DNA from: Minisyncoccota bacterium
GTDB lineage: Bacteria > Patescibacteriota > Minisyncoccia > Phycocordibacterales > UBA6065
Reading direction: 5' to 3'
Assembly (NCBI GenBank): GCA_036400935.1
Contig: DASWWW010000003.1
Location: 35,716 to 99,715, forward strand
Length of the DNA: 64,000 bases
A program made the translations under genes and the position numbers. Each line of letters begins with the position of its first letter. Position 1 is the stretch's first letter. The notes under the pieces were generated by a model that was not told where the DNA came from, made no database searches, and saw only the letters and a list, made by a program, of their open reading frames with translations. Shown here in pieces: positions 22,650-42,765 of this stretch.

Positions 22650-23009
22650 TACTTCTACCTCCAAATGGTTATTAATTCTCATCTAGCGCGAACGAAATAA
22701 AGGCCATTCAGTTGGCTATATTACGTTTCGCTCGAGAGAGCGATTTCTTTTTTAAGGGGGTATGTTGTTTCTTCGACAATAGAACCCCACCGCATGAGTC
22801 TTTCGAGTCAGTCCTACAAGGGACCGATGAGATGGTCTTTTCAAGCATGCAGGTGACTGCAATGATCTATAGATGGTTATTGCAAAACCTACTTTTTTCC
22901 AGGAAAGAAAAAGTAGAACAGGTAAATTAAAGTATTGAATTTCTGTTCGTTGTAAGCGAACAGGGATCATTGAGAGAAATTAGTTTAGTGGTTTTTAAAT
23001 TTCCTAATA

Positions 23010-26300
<3,291 letters not shown>

Positions 26301-26412
26301 TTATTAGGAAATTTATGAATCACACATGCCGTTCGAAAGGACAGCGGTGGTCTAGTTTCCTCAACTTTATTTACTTGAAATTACATATTTCCGAAAAACA
26401 ACATGATTGAGC

Positions 26413-26534
26413 TCTCTGTTCTGGTGATTCAACGCGATGGAACCACCTCTTCCCATCCCGAACAGAGAAGTTAAACGTCGTAGTGCCGATGATAGTCCTA
26501 CAGGGCGAAAGTAGGTAGTCGCCAGTACAGAGAG
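26413..26534 (+). rRNA. rrf: 5S ribosomal RNA.
   Basis: cccatcccgaacagagaagttaaac...gccgatgatagt...agtaggtagtcgcc. The terminal helix is ctctctgttc / acagagag. Confidence 0.85.
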
Positions 26535-32845: not shown

Positions 32846-32899
32846 TGCAAAATAGGCCTTTGCGCGCTAGTATTGCCGTACATTAATACAGTAATTCAT

Positions 32900-34237
32900 A
32901 TGTGGAAAAAAAGAATTTCAGCGCTTGTCCTGTTGGTGATCGCGTTCGGTATCGGCTATTTTACATACGATAAGGTCGGCGTAGAGACGCGCTTCCCATA
33001 CAGGCTCGGCCTCGACCTCTCGGGAGGTACGCACCTCGTATTCCGAGCGGATACTTCAAAGCTTTCGGCTGCGGACATTCCTGGCGCGATGACGTCACTT
33101 GCGGAGGTCGTCGAGCGACGCATCAATACCTTTGGCGTATCTGAGCCTATCGTCCAGGTAGAGACGGGCGGCAGCGTAGGCAGCACCGAGCACCGATTGA
33201 TCGTAGAGCTCCCGGGCGTTACCGATGTAAAGGAGGCCGTAGATCTCATCGGCAAGACTCCGACTCTCGATTTCCGTCTCTTGAAGCCGGGCGCTGAGAA
33301 TCTCACCGAAGAGCAGCAGAAGACCGCGACTGTCGACGACATCTTCGTCACTACCGGTCTCACGGGCCGATACCTCAAGACGGCTCGCCTCGAGTTTGAC
33401 CCGACGACATACGCTCCACACGTAGCTATCGAGTTCAACAGCGAGGGCAAGGACCTTTTCGCGAAGATTACCAAGGAGAACAAGGGCAAGATCCTCGCCA
33501 TCTTCCTCGACGGCAGCCCGATCTCGACCCCTGTCATCCAGTCCGAGATTACCAACGGCCAGGCCGTCATCAACGGTAGCTTCACCGTAGCCGAGGCAAA
33601 GACCCTCGTTAACGACCTCAAGACCGGCGCGCTTCCTGTGCCGATCTCTCTCGCTTCTACCCAGACCGTGGGCGCGACCCTCGGAAAGGGAGCTCTCGAC
33701 GCGAGCATGTTCGCCGGCCTCGTCGCGTTCATCGCCGTCGGCCTCTTCCTCATCATCTGGTACCGAGTGCCGGGCCTCATCGCTACTATCGCCATGGCCA
33801 TCTACGTTGCGCTCAACCTCGCGCTCTTCAAGCTTATCCCTGTAACTCTTACCTCAGCGGGCATTGCCGGCTTTATCCTTACCTTGGGAATGGCCGTGGA
33901 CGCCAACATCCTCATCTTCGAGCGAATGAAGGAGGAGCTCGCGAAGGGCAAGAACCTCGCCGACGCTATCAAGGAGGGTTTCCACCGCGCCTGGAACTCG
34001 ATCCGAGACTCGAACATGTCCTCGATCATCACCGCGCTCATCCTCTACTACTTCGCCTCGACTCCTGTCATCAAGGGCTTTGCGCTCGTGTTCGGCCTCG
34101 GCGTCGTCGTATCGATGTTCACCGCCATTACCGCTTCGCGAACGCTCCTTATGGCTGCGGGCGTAAAGGGGGAGGGCAAGGTATCCCGATTCTTCTTCGG
34201 TTCCGGCTTCATTTCATCTAAAAAGATAAACAGCTAA
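32900..34237 (+). CDS. secD: Protein-export membrane protein SecD.
   Basis: Large periplasmic domain containing ...PTLDFRLL..., then six C-terminal TM helices. secF follows immediately. Confidence 0.9.
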   Translation: MWKKRISALVLLVIAFGIGYFTYDKVGVETRFPYRLGLDLSGGTHLVFRADTSKLSAADIPGAMTSLAEVVERRINTFGVSEPIVQVETGGSVGSTEHRLIVELPGVTDVKEAVDLIGKTPTLDFRLLKPGAENLTEEQQKTATVDDIFVTTGLTGRYLKTARLEFDPTTYAPHVAIEFNSEGKDLFAKITKENKGKILAIFLDGSPISTPVIQSEITNGQAVINGSFTVAEAKTLVNDLKTGALPVPISLASTQTVGATLGKGALDASMFAGLVAFIAVGLFLIIWYRVPGLIATIAMAIYVALNLALFKLIPVTLTSAGIAGFILTLGMAVDANILIFERMKEELAKGKNLADAIKEGFHRAWNSIRDSNMSSIITALILYYFASTPVIKGFALVFGLGVVVSMFTAITASRTLLMAAGVKGEGKVSRFFFGSGFISSKKINS

Positions 34238-34241
34238 ACAT

Positions 34242-35165
34242 ATGTTCATCGTCACACACCGAAAATTCTTCTACGCTTTCTCAACGATCCTCCTCGTCGC
34301 GTCTGTCGTCGCGGTCTCCGTCTGGGGGCTCAAGCCGGGCATCGACTTCAAGGGGGGCTCTATCATCGAGGTCGAGTACGCTTCGTCTACTCGCCCTACT
34401 GCGGAGGCGGTAAAGCCGGCTCTCAATGCCCTTAATCTCGGCGAGTATTCGGTTCGCGAGACTGGTGCTGCCGGTTTCATCATCCGAACCAAGGAGCTCA
34501 CTCCTGTCGAGCATAACGGCGTGCTTGCGGCTCTCTCTGGCAAGTCGGCAGCGACTATCTCCGAGAAGCGCTTCGATTCTGTCGGGCCTATCCTCGGAAA
34601 GGAGGCTCTCGAGAAGTCCTTCTACTCGATTGCTCTCGTTCTCATAGCCATCGTCCTCTTCATTACCTTCGCGTTCCGCGGAGTGTCGCGGCCCGTCGCG
34701 TCGTGGAAGTACGGCGTGATCGCTATCGTCGCCCTCATCCATAACATCGCCGTTCCAGTGGGGGCTTTCGCCGTCCTCGGCCGCTATGCCGGCTTCGAAG
34801 TCGACACCCTCTTCGTTACCGCACTTCTCGTCATCCTCGGCTTCTCGGTCCACGACACGATCGTGGTATTCGACCGAGTGCGCGAGAACCTCAGGGGAGG
34901 CATCGACGGCAAGCAGAGGACTTTCGACGCTGTCGTGGGCATGTCGATAAATCAGACGTTCGTCCGATCGATCAACACGTCCCTTACGACCCTGATCGCA
35001 ATCTTCGCTCTCTACCTTGTCGGCGCTGAGTCTACGAAAAACTTCTCATTGGCTCTCCTTATCGGAATCCTCATGGGTACGTACTCTTCGATTTTCCTCG
35101 GCTCGCCGCTTCTCGTGACTGTATTCAAGATGCAGGAGAAGAAGGCTGCAAAGGCGGACAAGTAG
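34242..35165 (+). CDS. secF: Protein-export membrane protein SecF.
   Basis: 307 aa with SecF topology and conserved C-terminal TM block. Confidence 0.9.
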   Translation: MFIVTHRKFFYAFSTILLVASVVAVSVWGLKPGIDFKGGSIIEVEYASSTRPTAEAVKPALNALNLGEYSVRETGAAGFIIRTKELTPVEHNGVLAALSGKSAATISEKRFDSVGPILGKEALEKSFYSIALVLIAIVLFITFAFRGVSRPVASWKYGVIAIVALIHNIAVPVGAFAVLGRYAGFEVDTLFVTALLVILGFSVHDTIVVFDRVRENLRGGIDGKQRTFDAVVGMSINQTFVRSINTSLTTLIAIFALYLVGAESTKNFSLALLIGILMGTYSSIFLGSPLLVTVFKMQEKKAAKADK

Positions 35166-35187
35166 CAAAATCCCGTCTCGTACGTCT

Positions 35188-35219
35188 AAATAGGAGGCCG
35201 CGCAAGCGGCCTCCTATTT
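35188..35219 (+). terminator. Rho-independent terminator.
   Basis: aaataggaggccgc-gcaa-gcggcctcctattt hairpin. Confidence 0.65.
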
Positions 35220-35225
35220 GCTTAC

Positions 35226-37157
35226 ATGAATAAGAAAACGTATCGATATTCGGCCCTATTCCTGGTCGCGGTCCTCGGGATCGCCGCGCTCGCAGCCTGG
35301 CAGCTATTTCCAAGGCAATCGGCGACCCCTGAGGTCGCGACGTCCGAGGGGCATATGGGCCATGCCGGCCATCGCATGGAGACGGAACAGGAGATCGAGA
35401 AGCGGGAGCCTGTCATTGCCGTCCTGCCTCCGGCAAAGACTTTGTATAAGGCATTGAGCCCTGCGGCCTATTCGAGCTATCCTCTGCGCGCCGTAGGCGT
35501 CCATGGCGGCGACGATTGGATTCCCGACCTTTCCGCGGTGGCGACCAAGGAAGTCTCGTCGAGCGGGGCTTGGTCAAAAATATTTCCATATGGAGCGCTT
35601 GCCCCGGCGGATATCGTGAAGATACCGAAAGGGGTGATGGTGATTTACGATATCTCAACCACTACGCCGCTTGCCGCGATACACGTCGCGGGAACGCTGG
35701 CTTTTTCGACTACGACCCCTACCAAGATGTCGGTAGGCACTATCTTCGTGGACGGGGGAACGCTCGCGATCGACGCTTCGAGGACAACGGCCGACATATT
35801 GTTCAAAGGGTCGGTCTCGAAAGAGAAGGATCCCTTGCAGATAACTCTCGGCTTCGTAGCGGGAGGCGGCACGGTCAGCATACAGGGCAGGGTATTGTCC
35901 CAGCCGTTCGCTTATGCGGAAGGGAATGCGGGCGAAAGGACGCTGCGCCTCGACAGGGCGGTGGATTGGCGGGCAGGAGACGAGGTCTATGTCTCTTCGG
36001 GCAATGATGCGAGCGTCGATTCGACGTTCTGGGCGTACAATCATCGCGACTGGAGCTTGCGCAGGCCTTTCCCTGAGACAGGCGAGAGGGCGAAGGTCGT
36101 TTCCGTTCGGGGAGCGGCGGTGACTCTGGATAAGGCGCTTTCATACGATCACGCGCAGAGCGTGGCGGCTGACGTCACGCGATCGGTAACGTTCCGCTCC
36201 GATCCGGCGAATGCGGGCGGCGCCCGCGGGCATGTCATGCTTGCCGGTATGACCGATGCGACGGTGCAATACGCGCGCTTTTATGACTTGGGCAGGACGA
36301 CGATCGCGGCTACGGACGACACTCTCGTGCCGAACGGCGTCGTCACGCATACCGGCACGAATCAGCGAGGGCGCTACGCCTTGCATGCGCATCACCTGAT
36401 GAGGTCGTTCCTATTCGAGGGGAATGTCGTGTACGGATCCGAGATCGCACGAAAAGTCAGATCGGGCACGGAGCGCGCCGTCTCTGGCTCGCCGAAATGG
36501 GGCATCGTCAATCACGACAGCAACGGCATCATTCGCAGGAATGTCGTCATCGGCGCGGCCGGTTCCGGCATCGTGGGCGAGGATGGTACCGAAACGGGCG
36601 TCGTCGAGAATAACTTGGTCATCGGCACGGGCGGGGGATCGGGCGACAACGACGACGAGCGCTTTGGCGTGACAAAGAGCCTCGATATGGCCCATGGCGG
36701 CTTCGGGTACTGGTTCCGCGGGCCGTTCCTCGAGGTTCGCAACAACATAGCCGCCGGACATTTCAATCAGGCAGCCTATACATACTTTGTCCATCCGGGA
36801 TTCTTGCGCGAATTCATCAGGGATGATCCTGGCGTTCCGGCCGATCTGCGCGGCAAGAGGCAGAAGGATCTGGTGAGCGTGAATACCATCCGTCAATTCT
36901 CCGGAAATACCGCTGCGGGCTATTTTGGCAATGCTGGTTTTGTCATGTTTTATTCGCAGGTCGTGCAGCCGATCGATTCCTTTACCATGCGGGCGTTCGG
37001 TTCCGGTCCGGTAGACGGGGTGCTGTCGAGGATCATGAAGGGGATGAGGGTCTCGAATTCTGATTTGCGGGGAACGGGCGGCGGCGATGCCCTGGTCGCT
37101 TCGGAAAGCGGCCCGGTGGAGGCGGTGAATACAGTGATAGACCATTTCGCTCAATAA
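35226..37157 (+). CDS. Secreted right-handed parallel beta-helix repeat protein (G8/PbH1-like) with a His-rich N-terminal segment.
   Basis: Signal peptide, then SEGHMGHAGHRME, then Gly/Asn/Asp-rich repeats typical of beta-helix proteins (NNLVIGTGGGSGDND..., NNIAAGHFNQAAY). The antisense ORFs are rejected. Confidence 0.65.
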   Translation: MNKKTYRYSALFLVAVLGIAALAAWQLFPRQSATPEVATSEGHMGHAGHRMETEQEIEKREPVIAVLPPAKTLYKALSPAAYSSYPLRAVGVHGGDDWIPDLSAVATKEVSSSGAWSKIFPYGALAPADIVKIPKGVMVIYDISTTTPLAAIHVAGTLAFSTTTPTKMSVGTIFVDGGTLAIDASRTTADILFKGSVSKEKDPLQITLGFVAGGGTVSIQGRVLSQPFAYAEGNAGERTLRLDRAVDWRAGDEVYVSSGNDASVDSTFWAYNHRDWSLRRPFPETGERAKVVSVRGAAVTLDKALSYDHAQSVAADVTRSVTFRSDPANAGGARGHVMLAGMTDATVQYARFYDLGRTTIAATDDTLVPNGVVTHTGTNQRGRYALHAHHLMRSFLFEGNVVYGSEIARKVRSGTERAVSGSPKWGIVNHDSNGIIRRNVVIGAAGSGIVGEDGTETGVVENNLVIGTGGGSGDNDDERFGVTKSLDMAHGGFGYWFRGPFLEVRNNIAAGHFNQAAYTYFVHPGFLREFIRDDPGVPADLRGKRQKDLVSVNTIRQFSGNTAAGYFGNAGFVMFYSQVVQPIDSFTMRAFGSGPVDGVLSRIMKGMRVSNSDLRGTGGGDALVASESGPVEAVNTVIDHFAQ

Positions 37158-37175
37158 GTGTAGAGTGTTTGCAAT

Positions 37176-37257
37176 GAACACGTGGCGGAACTGGTATACG
37201 CGTACGTCTCAGAAGCGTATGGAGCAATCCTTGAGGGTTCAAGTCCCTCCGTGTTCA
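37176..37257 (+). tRNA. tRNA-Leu (anticodon CAG), type II with a long variable arm.
   Basis: Acceptor GAACACG/CGTGTTC. D-arm GCGGAACTGGTATACGC is nearly identical to E. coli tRNA-Leu. Anticodon loop CT-CAG-AA. Variable arm TGGAGCAATCCTT. T-arm GAGGG-TTCAAGT-CCCTC. Discriminator A. CCA is not encoded. Confidence 0.85.
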
Positions 37258-37325
37258 CACTTTCTCCAGCCGATTGCTTTTTAGTCCAATAAGAGTAGAT
37301 TTCAGGTAAGCATACAGCTTGCCTT

Positions 37326-38822
37326 ATGAAGAAAACCCTCTATATAGCCGTCTTATCGGCGCTTATCTACCCGGCTTTTGCCCAGGCGGCGTGGCAAGAC
37401 CCATTCATCTGGATCATCTCCGGCCGCTTTAACGCGCCTGCGACCGCGGCTATTAAAACAACCATCGAGGAGGCTGAGGCGACTTCGACTGCCCCCGCAT
37501 ACGTCGCGCCTTCTACCGAGGATCTCCTAAAGAGGATCGCGGAGCTTGAGGACAAGCTCGACAAGGCTCTCGCCAAGAATGCGGAGCTCGTGCAGGCAAA
37601 GCAGGTTGCCTCGGCAGCCGCTCCTGCCGCAAAAGCGGAGTCAAACGGATCGGGCATAACATCATCCGATCTTATCGCGAAGGTTCGGCCGGCTATTGTC
37701 GCTATCGACACGGCGACGAGCTCTGGCAGCGGCGTCATCATCGACTCTCAGGGACGTATCCTTGTCTCGGCTCGTACGGTGCTCAATTACGATTCGTCCG
37801 GAGCGGCTATCGGCGCTGCCGAGAACATGTCGGTAACGTTCTCGAATGGCACGAGCAAACAGGCGAAGCTCGTCGGCTTCAATGAATCGCACAATGTCGC
37901 TATCGTGCAGCTCGCAAGCGGCAGCGCATCGTCGTATTTGAAAAATGCGGACGTGTCGGCGCTCAAGGCTGGGGACAAGGCGTACGTATTTGCCTCGGCC
38001 CAGTCAAAGACGAATTCCGGCGGTACCGATATCGTTTCAGGAACCGTATCGAGCAAGGTAGGCGGATCGGTCGAGATGACTTCGGACAAGAAGCCTCTGG
38101 ACAATGCCGGCGCGCTCGTGAACGGCAAGGGCGAGCTCGTAGCGCTTCCTCGCACGACGTCCTGCAAGATTATGGAAGAGTCGCATACCTGCCTTACCTA
38201 CAAGATCGGCGCGGATATCGTATCGTCATTCCTCGCAAAGCCTCTCGAGGGCATGCGCCTCTACAAGAACAAGAAGGTCCGCACCGATGAGGAATTCCTC
38301 GTCCGCGGACAGCTCGAGGGCACGCTCCGCGCGATCAGCTCGAGCGGAACTTTGGAGTACGGCATAGCGAGCCTCTCAGGCAAGAACTCGTTCGACAATT
38401 TCAATAACAAGCTCGTCGACGACGAGGAGGGCAAGATAACCAGGCTTTATTTGGCAAAGCTCAAGATCGGCGCGGACAGCCTCATGAAGGCGAACGACGT
38501 GCTCAAGGCGCAGGCGCACGCATTGAACATCTTCTTTATCGACTATGCTGCGCAGATCCTCACCCTCGGCGACTACCAGCGAAAGATCCTCAAGGCGATG
38601 GAGGTGGAGAATGCCCTCAAGTTCAAGGAGTACGAGGCGAAAGTGAATTACTGGTCCGCAAAGAGGAACGAGTACGATTCGCTTATCACGAAGCCGCAGA
38701 ATGCTACCCATGATTTCCTGATGGAAGAGGGCGCGGCCATGGAGTCCGGCGTGAAATACCTCGAGAAGGAGCGGAAGAGGGTGCTTGATTCGGTCTCGAG
38801 CGAGATAATCGGGCTTTTCTAA
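37326..38822 (+). CDS. Secreted HtrA/DegP-like trypsin-fold protein with all three catalytic residues substituted (a likely pseudoprotease), plus an N-terminal coiled coil and a C-terminal helical domain.
   Basis: Signal peptide MKKTLYIAVLSALIYPAFAQA. SGSGVIIDSQGRILVSARTV aligns with GSGVII...NNHVV (H to R). HNVAIVQL aligns with DIALIQL (D to N). DNAGALVNGKGELVAL aligns with GNSGGALVN (S to A). Confidence 0.6.
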   Translation: MKKTLYIAVLSALIYPAFAQAAWQDPFIWIISGRFNAPATAAIKTTIEEAEATSTAPAYVAPSTEDLLKRIAELEDKLDKALAKNAELVQAKQVASAAAPAAKAESNGSGITSSDLIAKVRPAIVAIDTATSSGSGVIIDSQGRILVSARTVLNYDSSGAAIGAAENMSVTFSNGTSKQAKLVGFNESHNVAIVQLASGSASSYLKNADVSALKAGDKAYVFASAQSKTNSGGTDIVSGTVSSKVGGSVEMTSDKKPLDNAGALVNGKGELVALPRTTSCKIMEESHTCLTYKIGADIVSSFLAKPLEGMRLYKNKKVRTDEEFLVRGQLEGTLRAISSSGTLEYGIASLSGKNSFDNFNNKLVDDEEGKITRLYLAKLKIGADSLMKANDVLKAQAHALNIFFIDYAAQILTLGDYQRKILKAMEVENALKFKEYEAKVNYWSAKRNEYDSLITKPQNATHDFLMEEGAAMESGVKYLEKERKRVLDSVSSEIIGLF

Positions 38823-38850: not shown

Positions 38851-39792
38851 ATGTCAGACAAAGACGATACGCAGCATTCTACATACAAGACCCGGATTGA
38901 TGCTGCCGAAATGGAATCTTTCCTCAAAGGGAAGTATGGCGACGCAGTTGCGGGCGTTACATTTTTACGTGGCGGCGAGACGTCGCAGGCTTTCTCGTTC
39001 GAGAACGCTGGCGAGAAGCTTCTGATTCGGGTAAACAAGCATAATTCTAATGGCTTCGAGAAGGATCGCTACGTCCACGGTCATTATTCGTCAGACCGTA
39101 TCCCAACTGCCGATATCTTGGAAATAGGAAAGATGCCCCAGGGTAATTTCTATGCGATATCGAAAATGATAGAAGGGCAGACTGTCAATTCGCTTTCATC
39201 GGAAGCTTTAAGGAAGATCGTGCCAATCAGCTTCAAGATGCTCGATGAGGTGCACTCGCTGTCGCTTGAGGGCACCAAAGGTTATGGATATTGGAATGCG
39301 AAAGGCGAGGGCGAGCACTCTTCGTGGAAAGAGGTGATTGTTTCAATGGCTGATCGCTATGAAAGGTGGGACAAGCTGTTCGCTACTACGTTTATGGAAA
39401 GGAGCGTTCATGCCGAGCTCTCCCGCCAGATAAAGGATCTTGTGGTTCTTTGTCCCGAGGAGCGCTACCTGATGCATGGCGACTATGGCTTCGACAATAT
39501 GATTTCGGATGGCGAGCGGATCGTGGGGGTTATCGATTGGGCGGAATCCCGCTATGGAGATTTTCTTTACGATGCTGCGTGGCTTTCTTTCTGGCCGTCA
39601 GATTTCGATTTCAAGGCCGCGCTCGATACACACTACGCGGGAAGGAGCATTCCTCATTATGAAGAGAGGATCAGATGCTACCACGCATACATCGCTCTCA
39701 ATTCGCTCAGTTTCTATGCCTACTCGAACCAGAGGGACAAGTACGATTGGGCCAAGGGAAGGATAGCCAAACTCTTGGGGATCACTCTTTAG
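38851..39792 (+). CDS. Phosphotransferase-family kinase (APH/choline-kinase fold).
   Basis: Brenner motif LMHGDYGFDNMI and the Mg-binding motif VGVIDWAESRYGD. Confidence 0.7.
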   Translation: MSDKDDTQHSTYKTRIDAAEMESFLKGKYGDAVAGVTFLRGGETSQAFSFENAGEKLLIRVNKHNSNGFEKDRYVHGHYSSDRIPTADILEIGKMPQGNFYAISKMIEGQTVNSLSSEALRKIVPISFKMLDEVHSLSLEGTKGYGYWNAKGEGEHSSWKEVIVSMADRYERWDKLFATTFMERSVHAELSRQIKDLVVLCPEERYLMHGDYGFDNMISDGERIVGVIDWAESRYGDFLYDAAWLSFWPSDFDFKAALDTHYAGRSIPHYEERIRCYHAYIALNSLSFYAYSNQRDKYDWAKGRIAKLLGITL

Positions 39793-39804: not shown

Positions 39805-40632
39805 CTATTCCCGGATCCTCTCCGAGAAATCGGTGCTGTCCGCGAATTTCTCGGCGCGCGCATTTATATTGAATGTGGCGCGCGCCGCCTCGAACGAAAG
39901 GTCCGTATCGATAAGGCCGAGCTCGTAGGCGTAGCGGTCCGAATAGCCGGGAAGGAGGACTCGCATGTCGAATGGGATGCGGTCGGGAACGAGCTTGTTC
40001 ACATGGCTCACGATATTGGTAGTGCAGGTCGAGGTGAGGGTGTTATAGAATTCCGGCTCGCGCTGGAGCTTGTCGGCGCGCGCGAGCATGTCGAGGAAGA
40101 GGCTTTTGACCTGCTCCTTGCTTGCCTTGATGGGGTAGAGGAAGACCTGGTCGTGCCGGTAGTTTGAGCGCAGCTTTATGACGTCGCGCTCGTCGGCGAT
40201 GACGTACGAGAGCTCGTACTGGCGCAGGAGGCCCTTGACCGGCGAGAACGACTCGCCTTTTTCCTTGCGTATCTCGACCGAGACCGCCACGTGATTGCCG
40301 TCGTCAAAGCCGAAGGTAAGGAGCGTGTGAGCCGCGCCGGGATTCGTCGAGAACGGCTCGACCATGAAATCGACCGTCGCTATGCGATTGAGGTCGAACG
40401 TCTTGTCGTAATAGCCGGGAGTGTAGTCGGTCGTCGTGCGATAGGTGAAATTGCGGATGTCTTTGATCATGACCTTGTCGCCGTCGATTGATATCTTTGG
40501 CTCGACCGCCTGATCGAGGTTCCAGTCGCGGTCGGTGCGGGGCACGACGACGACGCTGAAAATCGCGTAGGCGAGGGCGAGCAGGACGGCGCCAAAGAAG
40601 GCGATTTTAGCGATATATTTGATGATTTTCAT
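39805..40632 (-). CDS. Membrane-anchored hypothetical protein (DUF4105-like).
   Basis: 275 aa with an N-terminal TM helix followed by a globular periplasmic-type domain. Family assignment is from memory only. Confidence 0.5.
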   Translation of the reverse strand: MKIIKYIAKIAFFGAVLLALAYAIFSVVVVPRTDRDWNLDQAVEPKISIDGDKVMIKDIRNFTYRTTTDYTPGYYDKTFDLNRIATVDFMVEPFSTNPGAAHTLLTFGFDDGNHVAVSVEIRKEKGESFSPVKGLLRQYELSYVIADERDVIKLRSNYRHDQVFLYPIKASKEQVKSLFLDMLARADKLQREPEFYNTLTSTCTTNIVSHVNKLVPDRIPFDMRVLLPGYSDRYAYELGLIDTDLSFEAARATFNINARAEKFADSTDFSERIRE

Positions 40633-40757: not shown

Positions 40758-41099
40758 TGTACTTACCTCTGAAAAACTCAGGTTTGAGGAAAAAAGACTT
40801 CGAAAGATGTCCTTTTTCTTTAAGGGGGACGGCAACTGTCGGACTTTGAAATAATTATTGTTATATAAGATTGAGAACGTGCAGAAGAGAGACTGGTTCA
40901 AGTTTCTTTGAATGTACGAGTCCAAATCTTTGAGTATGTTGGATACTGCGATCGGGTCAAAATTCGGACCAAGAGCAGATAATAGGATTGTGGAGGCGGG
41001 AAAGCACCCGTGAATCTCCCAGAGCAAAATATGCAGCAGTTCATACTGTCGTCTATTTTGTTCCGTTCGCTTTGTGCGCTCTTCGGAGCTTCAAAGTTT

Positions 41100-42592
41100 A
41101 TATTAAGAGTTTGATCCTAGCTCAGGATGAACGCTGGCGGCGTGGATAAGTCATGCAAGTCAAGGGGGCCGCAAGGCAACCGGCAGACGAGGTAGTAATA
41201 AGTAGGTACGAAACCAAAAGTCATGAATAGCCCACCGAAAGGTGGGGTAATACATGATAGTCCCTCCGGGGTAAAGATTTATCGCTTTTGGATCGGCCTG
41301 CTCGGTATCAGCTAGTTGGTGAGGTAAAAGCTCACCAAGGCTATGACGCCTAGGGGACCTGAGAGGGTGACCCCCACCGATGGAACTGAGACACGGTCCA
41401 TACACCTACGGGTGGCTGCAGACGAGAATATTCGACAATGGACGAAAGTCTGATCGAGCGACGCCGCGTGCAGGATGAAGTCCTTCGGGACGTAAACTGC
41501 TTTTATTGGGGAGGAAGTTTATTGACGTTACCCATTGAATAAGAGGTTGCTAAACTCGTGCCAGCAGCAGCGGTAATACGAGTGCCTCAAGCGTTATCCG
41601 GAATCATTGGGCGTAAAGGATGTGTAGGTGGCCGCATTAGTCTTTTGTTAAATTTCCCGGCTTAACTGGGAACCTGCAGAAGAAACGGTGCGGCTAGAGG
41701 ATGCAAGGGGTCTGCGGAACTCATAGTGTAGCGGTGAAATGCGTTGATATTATGGGGAACACCAAAAGCGAAGGCAGCAGACTGGGGCACTCCTGACACT
41801 GAAACATGAAAGCGTGGGTAGCGAATGGGATTAGATACCCCAGTAGTCCACGCCCTAAACGATGACAACTAGCTATTTCGAGTATCGACCCTCGGAGTGG
41901 CGTAGCTAACGCGTTAAGTTGTCCGCCTGGGTAGTACGACCGCAAGGTTAAAACTCAAAGGAATAGACGGGGACTCGCACAAGCAGAGGATCATGTGGTT
42001 TAATTCGATGGTAAACGAAGAACCTTACCAGGGTTAGAAATGTAGCTGAAGACAAGCAGAAACGTTTGTCGCCGCAAGGCAGTTACACAGGTGCTGCATG
42101 GCCGTCGTCAGTTCGTGGTTTGAATTGTTCCCTTCAGTGGGGTAACGAACGCAACCCTCATTGCCTGTTACAAGTGTCAGGCGAGACTGCCCAGCTTTTT
42201 GAGCACAAATCGAAAGATTTGCGAGCAAGAAGCTGGGAGGAAGGTGAGGATGACGCCAGGTCAGCATGGCCCTCTGATACCCTGGGCTACACACGTGATA
42301 CAATGGTGCATACAACGCGACGCGACGAGGAAACTCTGAGCAAATCGTAATAAAGTGCACCCTAGTTCGGATAGGAGTCTGCAACTCGACTCCTTGAAGC
42401 TGGATTTGCTAGTAATCTCGGGTCAGCCATACCGAGGTGAATACGTTCTCGAGTCTTGTACTCACCGCCCGTCAACTCAAGGGAGTTGGGAGTGCCCGAA
42501 GTCTGCGCCTGTCGCGGCCTAAGGCAAGCTCAATGACAGGGAGTAAGTCGTAACAAGGCACGGGTAGCGGAAGCTGCTCGTGGATTATTTCA
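41100..42592 (+). rRNA. rrs: 16S ribosomal RNA, unlinked from 23S-5S. Its 3' tail lacks the anti-Shine-Dalgarno CCUCC.
   Basis: The 5' end is agagtttgatcctagctcaggatgaacgctggcggcg. Internal blocks gtgccagcagcagcggtaatac and gtcgtaacaagg are present. The 3' end reads ...ggaagctgctcgtggattatttc, where CACCUCCUU is expected. Confidence 0.9.
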
Positions 42593-42765
42593 AGTGAAAA
42601 CACGCTTCTTATCTACGGATAAGAGCTGATAGAGTCGATCGTTTCAATAACGGGTTCGCGAGACACCTAAATCTCGCTGGAATCAGGGAAGACTGATAGA
42701 AGTCCGGTAGCCTTTATGGAGACCGAGATTAGAACGGGACAAAATAGAAGACAGTATACATGAAA

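Follow-up and report, generated by a model that had tools for sequence, protein, structure and literature searches.

HtrA-type proteases (HtrA, DegP, DegQ, DegS and PepD; MEROPS S1C) combine a Trypsin_2 domain, which carries the His-Asp-Ser triad and the oxyanion glycine, with a PDZ domain. Bacterial HtrA pseudoproteases are already known as a kind, for instance MamO, the magnetosome HtrA-like pseudoprotease (PDB 5hm9), a dead HtrA with a residue other than Gly at position 193 and a non-catalytic role (PMC4794232). Here we analyze a further protein of this kind, encoded in a 64,000-nucleotide stretch of DNA from a Minisyncoccota bacterium (contig DASWWW010000003.1, positions 35,716 to 99,715), to which we refer throughout as the window. 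As judged from its sequence, the gene encodes a Sec-exported, HtrA-derived (MEROPS S1C superfamily) pseudoprotease of Paceibacterota, within the candidate phyla radiation (CPR), that purifying selection maintains. Its novelty lies in the PDZ-less architecture, in which a coiled coil is followed by an S1C domain and a helical bundle, in the confinement to Paceibacterota, and in a well-resolved path from an active ancestor to a fully degenerate triad. The gene is as follows.

37326..38822, + strand: complete coding sequence of the pseudoprotease, ATG start, 498 amino acids plus stop

The product matches GenBank HEY0908329.1 at 100%, a record annotated 'MAG TPA: serine protease [Candidatus Paceibacterota bacterium]' (MAG, metagenome-assembled genome). 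Set beside the HtrA/DegP group, the window protein lacks the triad, the oxyanion Gly and the PDZ domain, and adds an N-terminal coiled coil, a bundle of ~190 amino acids, an insertion in the 60-loop and a Cys-x8-Cys hairpin; against the NCBIfam equivalogs for DegP, DegQ, DegS, HtrA and HhoA, it scores 20-34 bits, compared with cutoffs of 416-756. MamO departs from the canonical proteases in ways of its own, retaining His and Asp, with Thr at the nucleophile position, di-His metal binding and, in Magnetospirillum, fusion to a TauE transporter, whereas the partner domains of the window protein are the coiled coil and the helical bundle, and its host is a CPR bacterium. The NCBIfam MamO model (NF040961) gives 21.1 bits against a cutoff of 800, and the window protein has no transporter domain; for all its likeness in principle, it does not belong to the MamO family. 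Other non-catalytic S1 domains that bind, namely, the S1C-NTF2 ectodomain of RsgI9 (7sjy), UmbA of the Streptomyces umbrella toxins (8w20/9oee) and the scabies mite SMIPP-S (3h7t), stand in unrelated domain contexts and lineages and share no specific sequence link with the window protein past the superfamily. The nearest match in overall layout is found within the CPR themselves, among the 'AWWNPF' Trypsin_2 proteases (P0039, P0042, P0044 and P0035), which have the same signal peptide, an A-W-W-N-P-F-x-W motif, a coiled coil, an S1C domain and a helical C-terminus. These proteins keep LTNAH / D-[LIV]-A / HPGNSGGP and, on the strength of these motifs, are presumably active; they lack the 60-loop insertion, and the Cys hairpin is present in P0035 only. 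A literature search on CPR HtrA-like proteins returned nothing relevant and no description of the dead family.

The argument for the loss of catalysis rests on the following parts of the protein.

37656..38225, + strand: HtrA/S1C-type chymotrypsin-fold domain, residues 111-300, predicted to be catalytically dead
37773..37775, + strand: Arg150, at the catalytic His position; family column H15/R6/N3/Y2/S1 among 27 homologues
37782..37814, + strand: ~10-residue insertion past the His position ('60-loop' region), residues 153-163, specific to the dead clade (alignment A2)
37893..37895, + strand: Asn190, at the catalytic Asp position; family column D20/N4/G3 among 27 homologues
38097..38111, + strand: former L1/oxyanion loop L258-D259-N260-A261-G262, equivalent to G-N-S-G-G, placed by profile alignment and hmmalign
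38163..38192, + strand: C280-x8-C289 beta-hairpin, both Cys invariant in the dead clade and P0035

The fold itself is readily recognized. Pfam Trypsin_2 (PF13365) covers residues 134-274 end to end at 37.7 bits (gathering cutoff 27.6), and the three stretches that a preliminary description of the gene had quoted as trypsin-fold blocks fall at residues 133-152, 189-196 and 259-274. A search with the single sequence against HtrA, DegQ and DegP structures gives a weak match (E ~3e-4); the profile of the family, built from an alignment of 27 full-length homologues (A1) from which all invariance counts given here are also taken, reaches Mycobacterium tuberculosis PepD/Rv0983 at E=1.6e-16 and dozens of DegP, DegQ, DegS, HhoA and HtrA1 chains at ~1e-12. 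By profile and by chymotrypsin fold, the domain belongs with HtrA in MEROPS S1C.

In the PepD profile alignment, the three catalytic motifs align free of gaps, with 'ilvsaHtvl' facing 'ILTNNHVIA' at the His, 'deakDiAilqi' facing 'DPTSDIAVVRV' at the Asp, and 'kkPldNGGALVN' facing 'INPGNSGGALVN' at the Ser, the core of the last pair being PLDNGGALVN and PGNSGGALVN. The columns were also defined by hmmalign of 171 relatives to the hidden Markov model (HMM) of the family, including more than 100 outgroup proteins that are canonical at all three sites (LTNAHVV / D-[LIV]-A / HPGNSGGPLVN), and their H, D and S columns are occupied in the window protein by R150, N190 and N260. Thus aligned, the protein bears out the preliminary description in that all three catalytic residues are replaced, with Arg and Asn at the His and Asp positions as proposed; the Ala assigned there to the Ser position has to give way to Asn260, so that the triad reads R/N/N. 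The register that would put Ala261 in the Ser column is ruled out by pairwise HMMER, the profile alignment and hmmalign, all of which give N260, and Ala261-Gly262 match the Gly-Gly that follows Ser in active homologues. A second candidate, D156 of 'NYD' as the counterpart of the catalytic His, came from one gapped pairwise alignment and was rejected in favor of R150 because the family consensus aligns without gaps ('ILVxAHxVW' to 'ILTNxHV'), the surplus residues being those of the clade-specific insertion past the His.

Around the former nucleophile, Leu258 stands in place of the oxyanion Gly (chymotrypsin position 193), a kind of lesion that MamO also has there (PMC4794232), P257 is invariant, D259 is at least 90% conserved, and the family loop consensus is [LFI]-D-N-G-G in place of G-N-S-G-G. 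In the profile alignment, none of the catalytic positions retains its His, Asp or Ser, and elsewhere in the domain neither Ser nor His is invariant; the intact triad at another place, which the preliminary description had named as refuting its reading, is not there. By these alignments, the window protein has lost all its catalytic residues while keeping the HtrA fold. The Cys pair, which is missing from the more distant active relatives, is a probable disulfide.

These columns also bear on whether the protein could still be a protease, with a non-canonical nucleophile or triad built on the Asn260/Asp259 pair, on a Cys, or on a Ser elsewhere, an idea that we consider very improbable. The conservation of D259 and the invariance of C280 and C289 could be cited in its favor, as could the Ser at position 261 in four members of the family and the Thr at position 260 in five or more. 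However, across the 27 homologues residues 111-300 contain neither an invariant Ser nor an invariant His, the nucleophile column contains N, T, G, D, M, R, V, Q and E, a variability that disfavors Asn as a new catalytic nucleophile, and the general-base column contains H, R, N, Y, S, K, I and D. Furthermore, a bulky side chain has taken the place of the oxyanion Gly, the two Cys belong to a distal hairpin rather than to the nucleophile position, and the window protein is R/N/N; MamO, with Thr at the nucleophile position, is inactive (PMC4794232). In public databases, the family is annotated as 'serine protease' or 'trypsin-like peptidase'. The whole Paceibacterota clade appears to be mislabelled, its members not being proteases by their residues, and metabolic or secretome inferences based on such protease labels would be wrong.

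The family is not large. It comprises ~37 sequence clusters in which the full-length open reading frames are intact. A word-index search, with clustering at 90% identity, yielded 27 clusters of full-length homologues at 40-70% identity, the named ones all coming from Parcubacteria, Paceibacterota or Patescibacteria; an exhaustive HMM search over 1.84 billion representatives recovered ~20 with the full architecture and thousands more that match in the N-terminal region and protease domain alone; and among 185,579 species-representative genomes, a scan turned up 13 loci, every one of them in a Patescibacteria MAG. Complete MAGs with the gene include GCA_016215405.1 and GCA_039796155.1. These searches point to a small family restricted to Paceibacterota. 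Clear orthologues, set in the same syntenic block, are encoded at L009, L011 and L014, in MAGs whose records bear the title 'uncultured Candidatus Saccharibacteria bacterium' and whose relatives are labelled Paceibacterota, Parcubacteria or Taylorbacteria; such mixed titles probably stem from inconsistent automated taxonomy in the deposited records.

The order in which the catalytic residues disappeared can be read from a neighbor-joining tree, built without bootstrap. The active outgroup (P0039, P0040, P0042 and P0044) has H-D-S and no Cys pair; P0035, in which H-D-S and GNSGG are intact and the C-x8-C hairpin is in place already, is sister to the dead clade. Within that clade, Ser is missing in 36 of 36 members (the column is mostly N, with T, G, D, M, R and V also present) and likewise in all 12 dead-clade loci that were re-examined from genomes or assemblies, which add Q and E. 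On this tree, His was replaced at least eight separate times within the dead clade (by R, N, Y, S, K, I or D) and Asp at least five (by N or G). The window protein and P0002 (70% identical, both R-N-N) form a terminal branch, the sister of which, P0003, is still H-D-N; given this and the clade-wide absence of Ser, the loss of Ser must be ancient, and Arg150 and Asn190 recent. The comparison of orthologues that the preliminary description had suggested thus supports its reading of a pseudoprotease. On present alignments, the nucleophile was lost once, after which His and Asp decayed repeatedly. Full-length active relatives are only distantly similar to the window protein (22-26% identity, and 35% for P0035), and the shared architecture points to active proteases of the P0039, P0040, P0042 and P0044 type as the ancestry of the dead clade. 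Taken together, active ancestors, an intermediate in P0035 with both hairpin and triad, a single loss of the nucleophile and repeated erosion of His and Asp make up an unusually clean natural record of the birth of a pseudoenzyme.

Selection on the gene has been strong throughout and extends over the whole protein, the remodelled active-site loop (K-P-x-D-N-G-G), the newly acquired Cys-x8-Cys hairpin and the C-terminal bundle included. Among orthologue pairs with unsaturated synonymous divergence (dS 0.1-0.8; L005, L013 and L014), the ratio of nonsynonymous to synonymous divergence (dN/dS) is 0.05-0.09 overall, ~0.08 in the protease-like domain and 0.04-0.065 in the C-terminal domain; for the window compared with L009, it is ~0.09, a value that is indicative only because dS is saturated (2.3). 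There are 39 invariant columns in the 27-homologue alignment, and the C-terminal bundle is the best-conserved part of the protein, with a mean pairwise identity of 51%, compared with 45% in the protease-like domain. The low dN/dS shows that the gene is maintained under purifying selection: it is a maintained pseudoenzyme, not a decaying gene. A functionless relic in the course of decay is, therefore, scarcely credible, even though not one catalytic residue is left and no member of the family is more degenerate at the triad than the window protein. The conservation and the dN/dS effectively refute that notion; in addition, intact full-length reading frames persist in ~37 clusters, across a 16S divergence that spans 90-95% identity, and a dead gene of 1.5 kb is not expected to persist in small CPR genomes. 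Homology to an active family, loss of the catalytic residues with no conserved substitute, and purifying selection are found together here, and the ancient, clade-wide loss of the nucleophile, followed by decay of His and Asp at low dN/dS, is the signature expected of a functional pseudoprotease. The finding is solid, corrects an annotation and offers a neat example of pseudoenzyme evolution; it is not very surprising, and the function is what we infer in the remainder of this text. A scan for expression signals gave 0 promoter-like sites and about as many terminator-like sites as expected by chance, and no Shine-Dalgarno sequence stood out clearly.

Clues to function come from the parts of the protein outside the protease-like domain.

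37326..37388, + strand: Sec-type signal peptide, residues 1-21 (MKKTLYIAVLSALIYPAFAQA), read from the sequence
37389..37418, + strand: Trp-rich mature N-terminus AWQDPFIWII, W29 invariant
37419..37505, + strand: low-complexity linker, residues 32-60, predicted to be disordered (predicted local distance difference test, pLDDT, below 50)
37515..37607, + strand: helix 64-94 with a coiled-coil core of ~3 heptads, from AlphaFold2 (AF2) and conservation
38286..38819, + strand: C-terminal helical bundle, residues 321-498, family-specific, about 190 amino acids

On these parts, the preliminary description fares well. The signal peptide has the layout MKK, hydrophobic core and A19-Q-A21|A22, which fits signal peptidase I; P16 and A21, the -1 Ala, are invariant among the 27 homologues, and the -3 position is A, V, T or S. 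The mature protein starts with AWQDPFIW, a degenerate copy of the hallmark A-W-W-N-P-F-[ST]-W, which 74 of the top 171 relatives share, whether they are active or dead; among the open reading frames of the window, this one alone carries it. In its fuller form, P-Q-[IV]-x-x-A|A-W-W-N-P-F-[ST]-W, the motif lies directly past the predicted signal-peptidase site, and its carriers among the 171 Trypsin_2 relatives, P0039-P0131 and others, differ widely in how their C-termini are built. To go by these sequences, it seems to mark out a large HtrA-like subfamily specific to CPR, and it might serve as a Trp-rich anchor at the membrane interface or as a signal for sorting or of a pro-peptide.

Two low-complexity linkers predicted to be disordered, residues 32-60 (mean pairwise identity ~15%) and 95-110, bracket the AF2 helix 64-94, which corresponds to the N-terminal coiled coil noted previously: L67, I71, L74, L78 and A81 fall into the a/d heptad register, and all of them except I71 are invariant. 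The modelled coiled coil is plausibly compatible with oligomerization, without proving it. That a helical domain replaces the PDZ domain is likewise upheld, no Pfam PDZ match being obtained at E<=1 for the window protein and no PDZ domain in ten relatives that were scanned (P0035 and nine active ones), and residues 321-497 being predicted as all-helical with a pLDDT of ~91. Invariant polar residues of this bundle are N354, D366, K378, K380, D391, K394, W443, K446, E449-Y450-D451 and H462. The last residue, Phe498 (38817-38819), is invariant in 27 of 27 homologues and is also present in distant active relatives; this terminal Phe recalls the C-terminal signals that are read by PDZ domains and tail-specific proteases, in a protein that itself has no PDZ domain.

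The coiled coil and bundle shared with active relatives raise the possibility that the window protein works with an active paralogue as its regulatory or partner subunit, forming mixed oligomers with, or allosterically activating, a protease of the same architecture encoded elsewhere. Because active relatives with the same coiled coil and bundle exist (P0035, P0039, P0042 and P0044), compatible oligomerization surfaces are plausible. MamO and Deg5 are both among the structural neighbors of the window protein, and Deg5, which has no PDZ domain, pairs with Deg8 in such a manner. MamO and MamE provide the other precedent, and duplication followed by loss of catalysis recurs in the HtrA family (PMC4794232). 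No paralogue, however, is encoded within the 64 kb of the window, and the active full-length relatives are as distant as described above and occur in other genomic contexts, so that we regard a partner-subunit role as rather improbable.

What we consider probable is a broader proposition, namely, that this is a non-catalytic binding protein of the cell envelope. It would act outside the cytoplasmic membrane, binding rather than cutting, and would probably be oligomeric, like HtrAs, with the coiled coil perhaps assisting; the former substrate cleft, the helical bundle or both may hold the partner proteins. Three elements that persisted, or became fixed for the first time, once catalysis had gone are those we would single out as candidate interaction surfaces: the K-P-x-D-N-G-G loop, which is nearly invariant, the hairpin with its two Cys, and the helical bundle. 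Export is supported by the signal peptide with its invariant -1 Ala.

Within this broad reading, the most likely specific role, which we propose tentatively and by analogy, would be that of a holdase or scaffold that serves exported proteins where membrane and cell wall meet, close to the exit of the Sec machinery, a counterpart of the protease-independent chaperone activity of HtrA/DegP. DegP S210A keeps its chaperone function. The HtrA of Gram-positive, monoderm bacteria acts on translocated proteins at the membrane-wall interface, with both chaperone and protease activity (PMC12826053; PMC3188284). It is because of these precedents that a holdase or scaffold is favored here. More generally, an exported, non-catalytic HtrA scaffold can be seen as a reasonable candidate for a part in envelope biogenesis or host contact because CPR bacteria have tiny genomes and depend on the cell surface for their episymbiotic life.

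The proposed proximity to Sec draws on the genes around the locus, which in the window are arranged as follows.

23002-26527, same strand as the 16S gene and ~14.5 kb upstream of it: 23S-5S rRNA genes
32873-34237, + strand: SecD, recurrent upstream neighbor
34242-35165, + strand: SecF, recurrent upstream neighbor
35226-37157, upstream: G8/beta-helix protein, 643 amino acids (G8 at E=1.4e-8, plus a CEMIP-like right-handed beta-helix)
37176-37258, + strand: tRNA-Leu(CAG), directly upstream
38851-39792, downstream: APH-family kinase
39805-40632, - strand: Lnb_N-domain protein (PF13387, E=2.8e-40)
41099-42595, downstream: 16S rRNA gene

The preliminary description had emphasized the tRNA-Leu and the beta-helix protein. 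Their positions are as given there, and neither is a conserved partner; it is SecD-SecF that recurs. The tRNA-Leu(CAG) is found in three of six loci checked (the window and five scanned; present in the window, L001 and L003 only), and the only other locus with a homologue of the G8/beta-helix protein (52% identical) in that slot, between secF and the pseudoprotease, is L015, which rules out both as meaningful partners. Of 17 distinct dead-clade loci, 14 have SecD-SecF upstream in the same orientation, as does the window, and the gene starts 50-300 bp past secF in ~5 loci from separate subclades. The wider conserved block consists of Bac_transf, epimerases, SecDF, the pseudoprotease, Lnb_N, 16S, tRNA-Ile and pyruvate kinase. 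The association of the pseudoprotease with Sec is no more than suggestive. As strong functional evidence, the adjacency was downgraded, the block being syntenic in close relatives and the link missing in L007, L008, L018 and L020.

A number of observations weigh against the holdase proposal and, in part, against the broader one. First, the PDZ domain, the module with which HtrAs engage their substrates, is missing. Second, the block is conserved among organisms that are only 90-95% identical in 16S, other loci have one to three unrelated genes between SecF and the pseudoprotease, and the SecDF link is absent from the most divergent dead members (L008, L018 and L020) and from the active relative P0042 (locus L007, which adjoins GroES/EL, LemA and TPM genes); the adjacency may, then, be inherited synteny rather than functional coupling. 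L018 adjoins genes for DnaB, an ABC ATPase and a pilin-like LamG protein, and L008 adjoins CysRS and an S41 protease; in L020, no SecD or SecF was detectable within 6 kb. Third, the tree that orders the losses has no bootstrap support. Finally, among organisms with 16S at 90-95% identity, the pseudoprotease is 41-54% identical, compared with 71-84% for SecD and 66-81% for SecF, and such fast divergence fits a surface protein facing the environment or a host at least as well as it does a housekeeping chaperone.

The last point leads to a different possibility, namely, that the protein serves an episymbiotic CPR cell as an adhesin on its surface or as a factor in host interaction, with the cleft and bundle displayed on a stalk made of the linker and the coiled coil. 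The protein is secreted, its linkers are long, disordered by prediction and rich in Thr, Ser, Ala and Pro, its divergence far outpaces that of the neighboring SecD and SecF, and it is confined to a narrow CPR lineage (13 of ~185,579 species representatives). Moreover, other dead S1 domains bind, as exemplified by RsgI9, SMIPP-S and the UmbA lectin-bearing subunits, and the structural neighbors of the bundle include the surface or host-binding helical proteins Imp of phytoplasma and FbpC of Borrelia, which is a weak point in favor, the similarities being generic, at no more than 10% identity. Set against this, the dN/dS values give no sign of diversifying selection at the level of the whole domain, and the window protein has neither an LPXTG motif nor a lipobox by which to be anchored. 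Overall, we rate a surface factor as improbable, on a par with the partner subunit.

Unlikely as well, if somewhat less so, is a CPR-specific invention, in which the K-P-x-D-N-G-G loop, the 60-loop insertion and the disulfide hairpin would have remodelled the HtrA cleft into a ligand site coupled to the bundle with its C-terminal Phe, the whole serving as a Sec-proximal holdase, a surface-assembly factor or a host-contact module for episymbiosis. Such a function, if real, would have no characterized counterpart among the PDZ-bearing HtrAs.

Some further features of the neighborhood deserve mention. The interval between secF and the pseudoprotease (35166-37325 in the window; also L001, L003, L004, L006, L011 and L015) is a hot spot of variable gene content between fixed flanks and contains, depending on the locus, the G8/beta-helix protein, an APH kinase, a Cu-oxidase_4 protein, VTT and GT2 genes, or hypothetical genes, sometimes with tRNA-Leu(CAG). 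The APH-family kinase is 3' of the pseudoprotease in the window and upstream of it in L006 and L011. The Lnb_N protein (72-81% identity) is encoded directly downstream, on the opposite strand, in L004, L006, L009, L011, L017 and L019, and L001, L003, L004 and L006 match the window in where the 16S gene lies downstream of the pseudoprotease. In the window, 16S is unlinked from 23S-5S, and the 23S gene, which exceeds the model in length by ~385 nt, is interrupted by a group I intron (25755-26010, 57.9 bits), an arrangement typical of CPR genomes. The 643-residue G8/beta-helix protein has an N-terminal hydrophobic segment and no NCBIfam match; the pairing of G8 with a CEMIP-like beta-helix is best known from eukaryotic hyaluronan-depolymerizing and cell-surface proteins. 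Type IV pilin-like proteins with an N_methyl motif and Laminin_G_3 are encoded near the pseudoprotease in L018 (8240-9984) and L003 (11263-12075), a proximity that may be coincidental, CPR genomes being rich in such genes.

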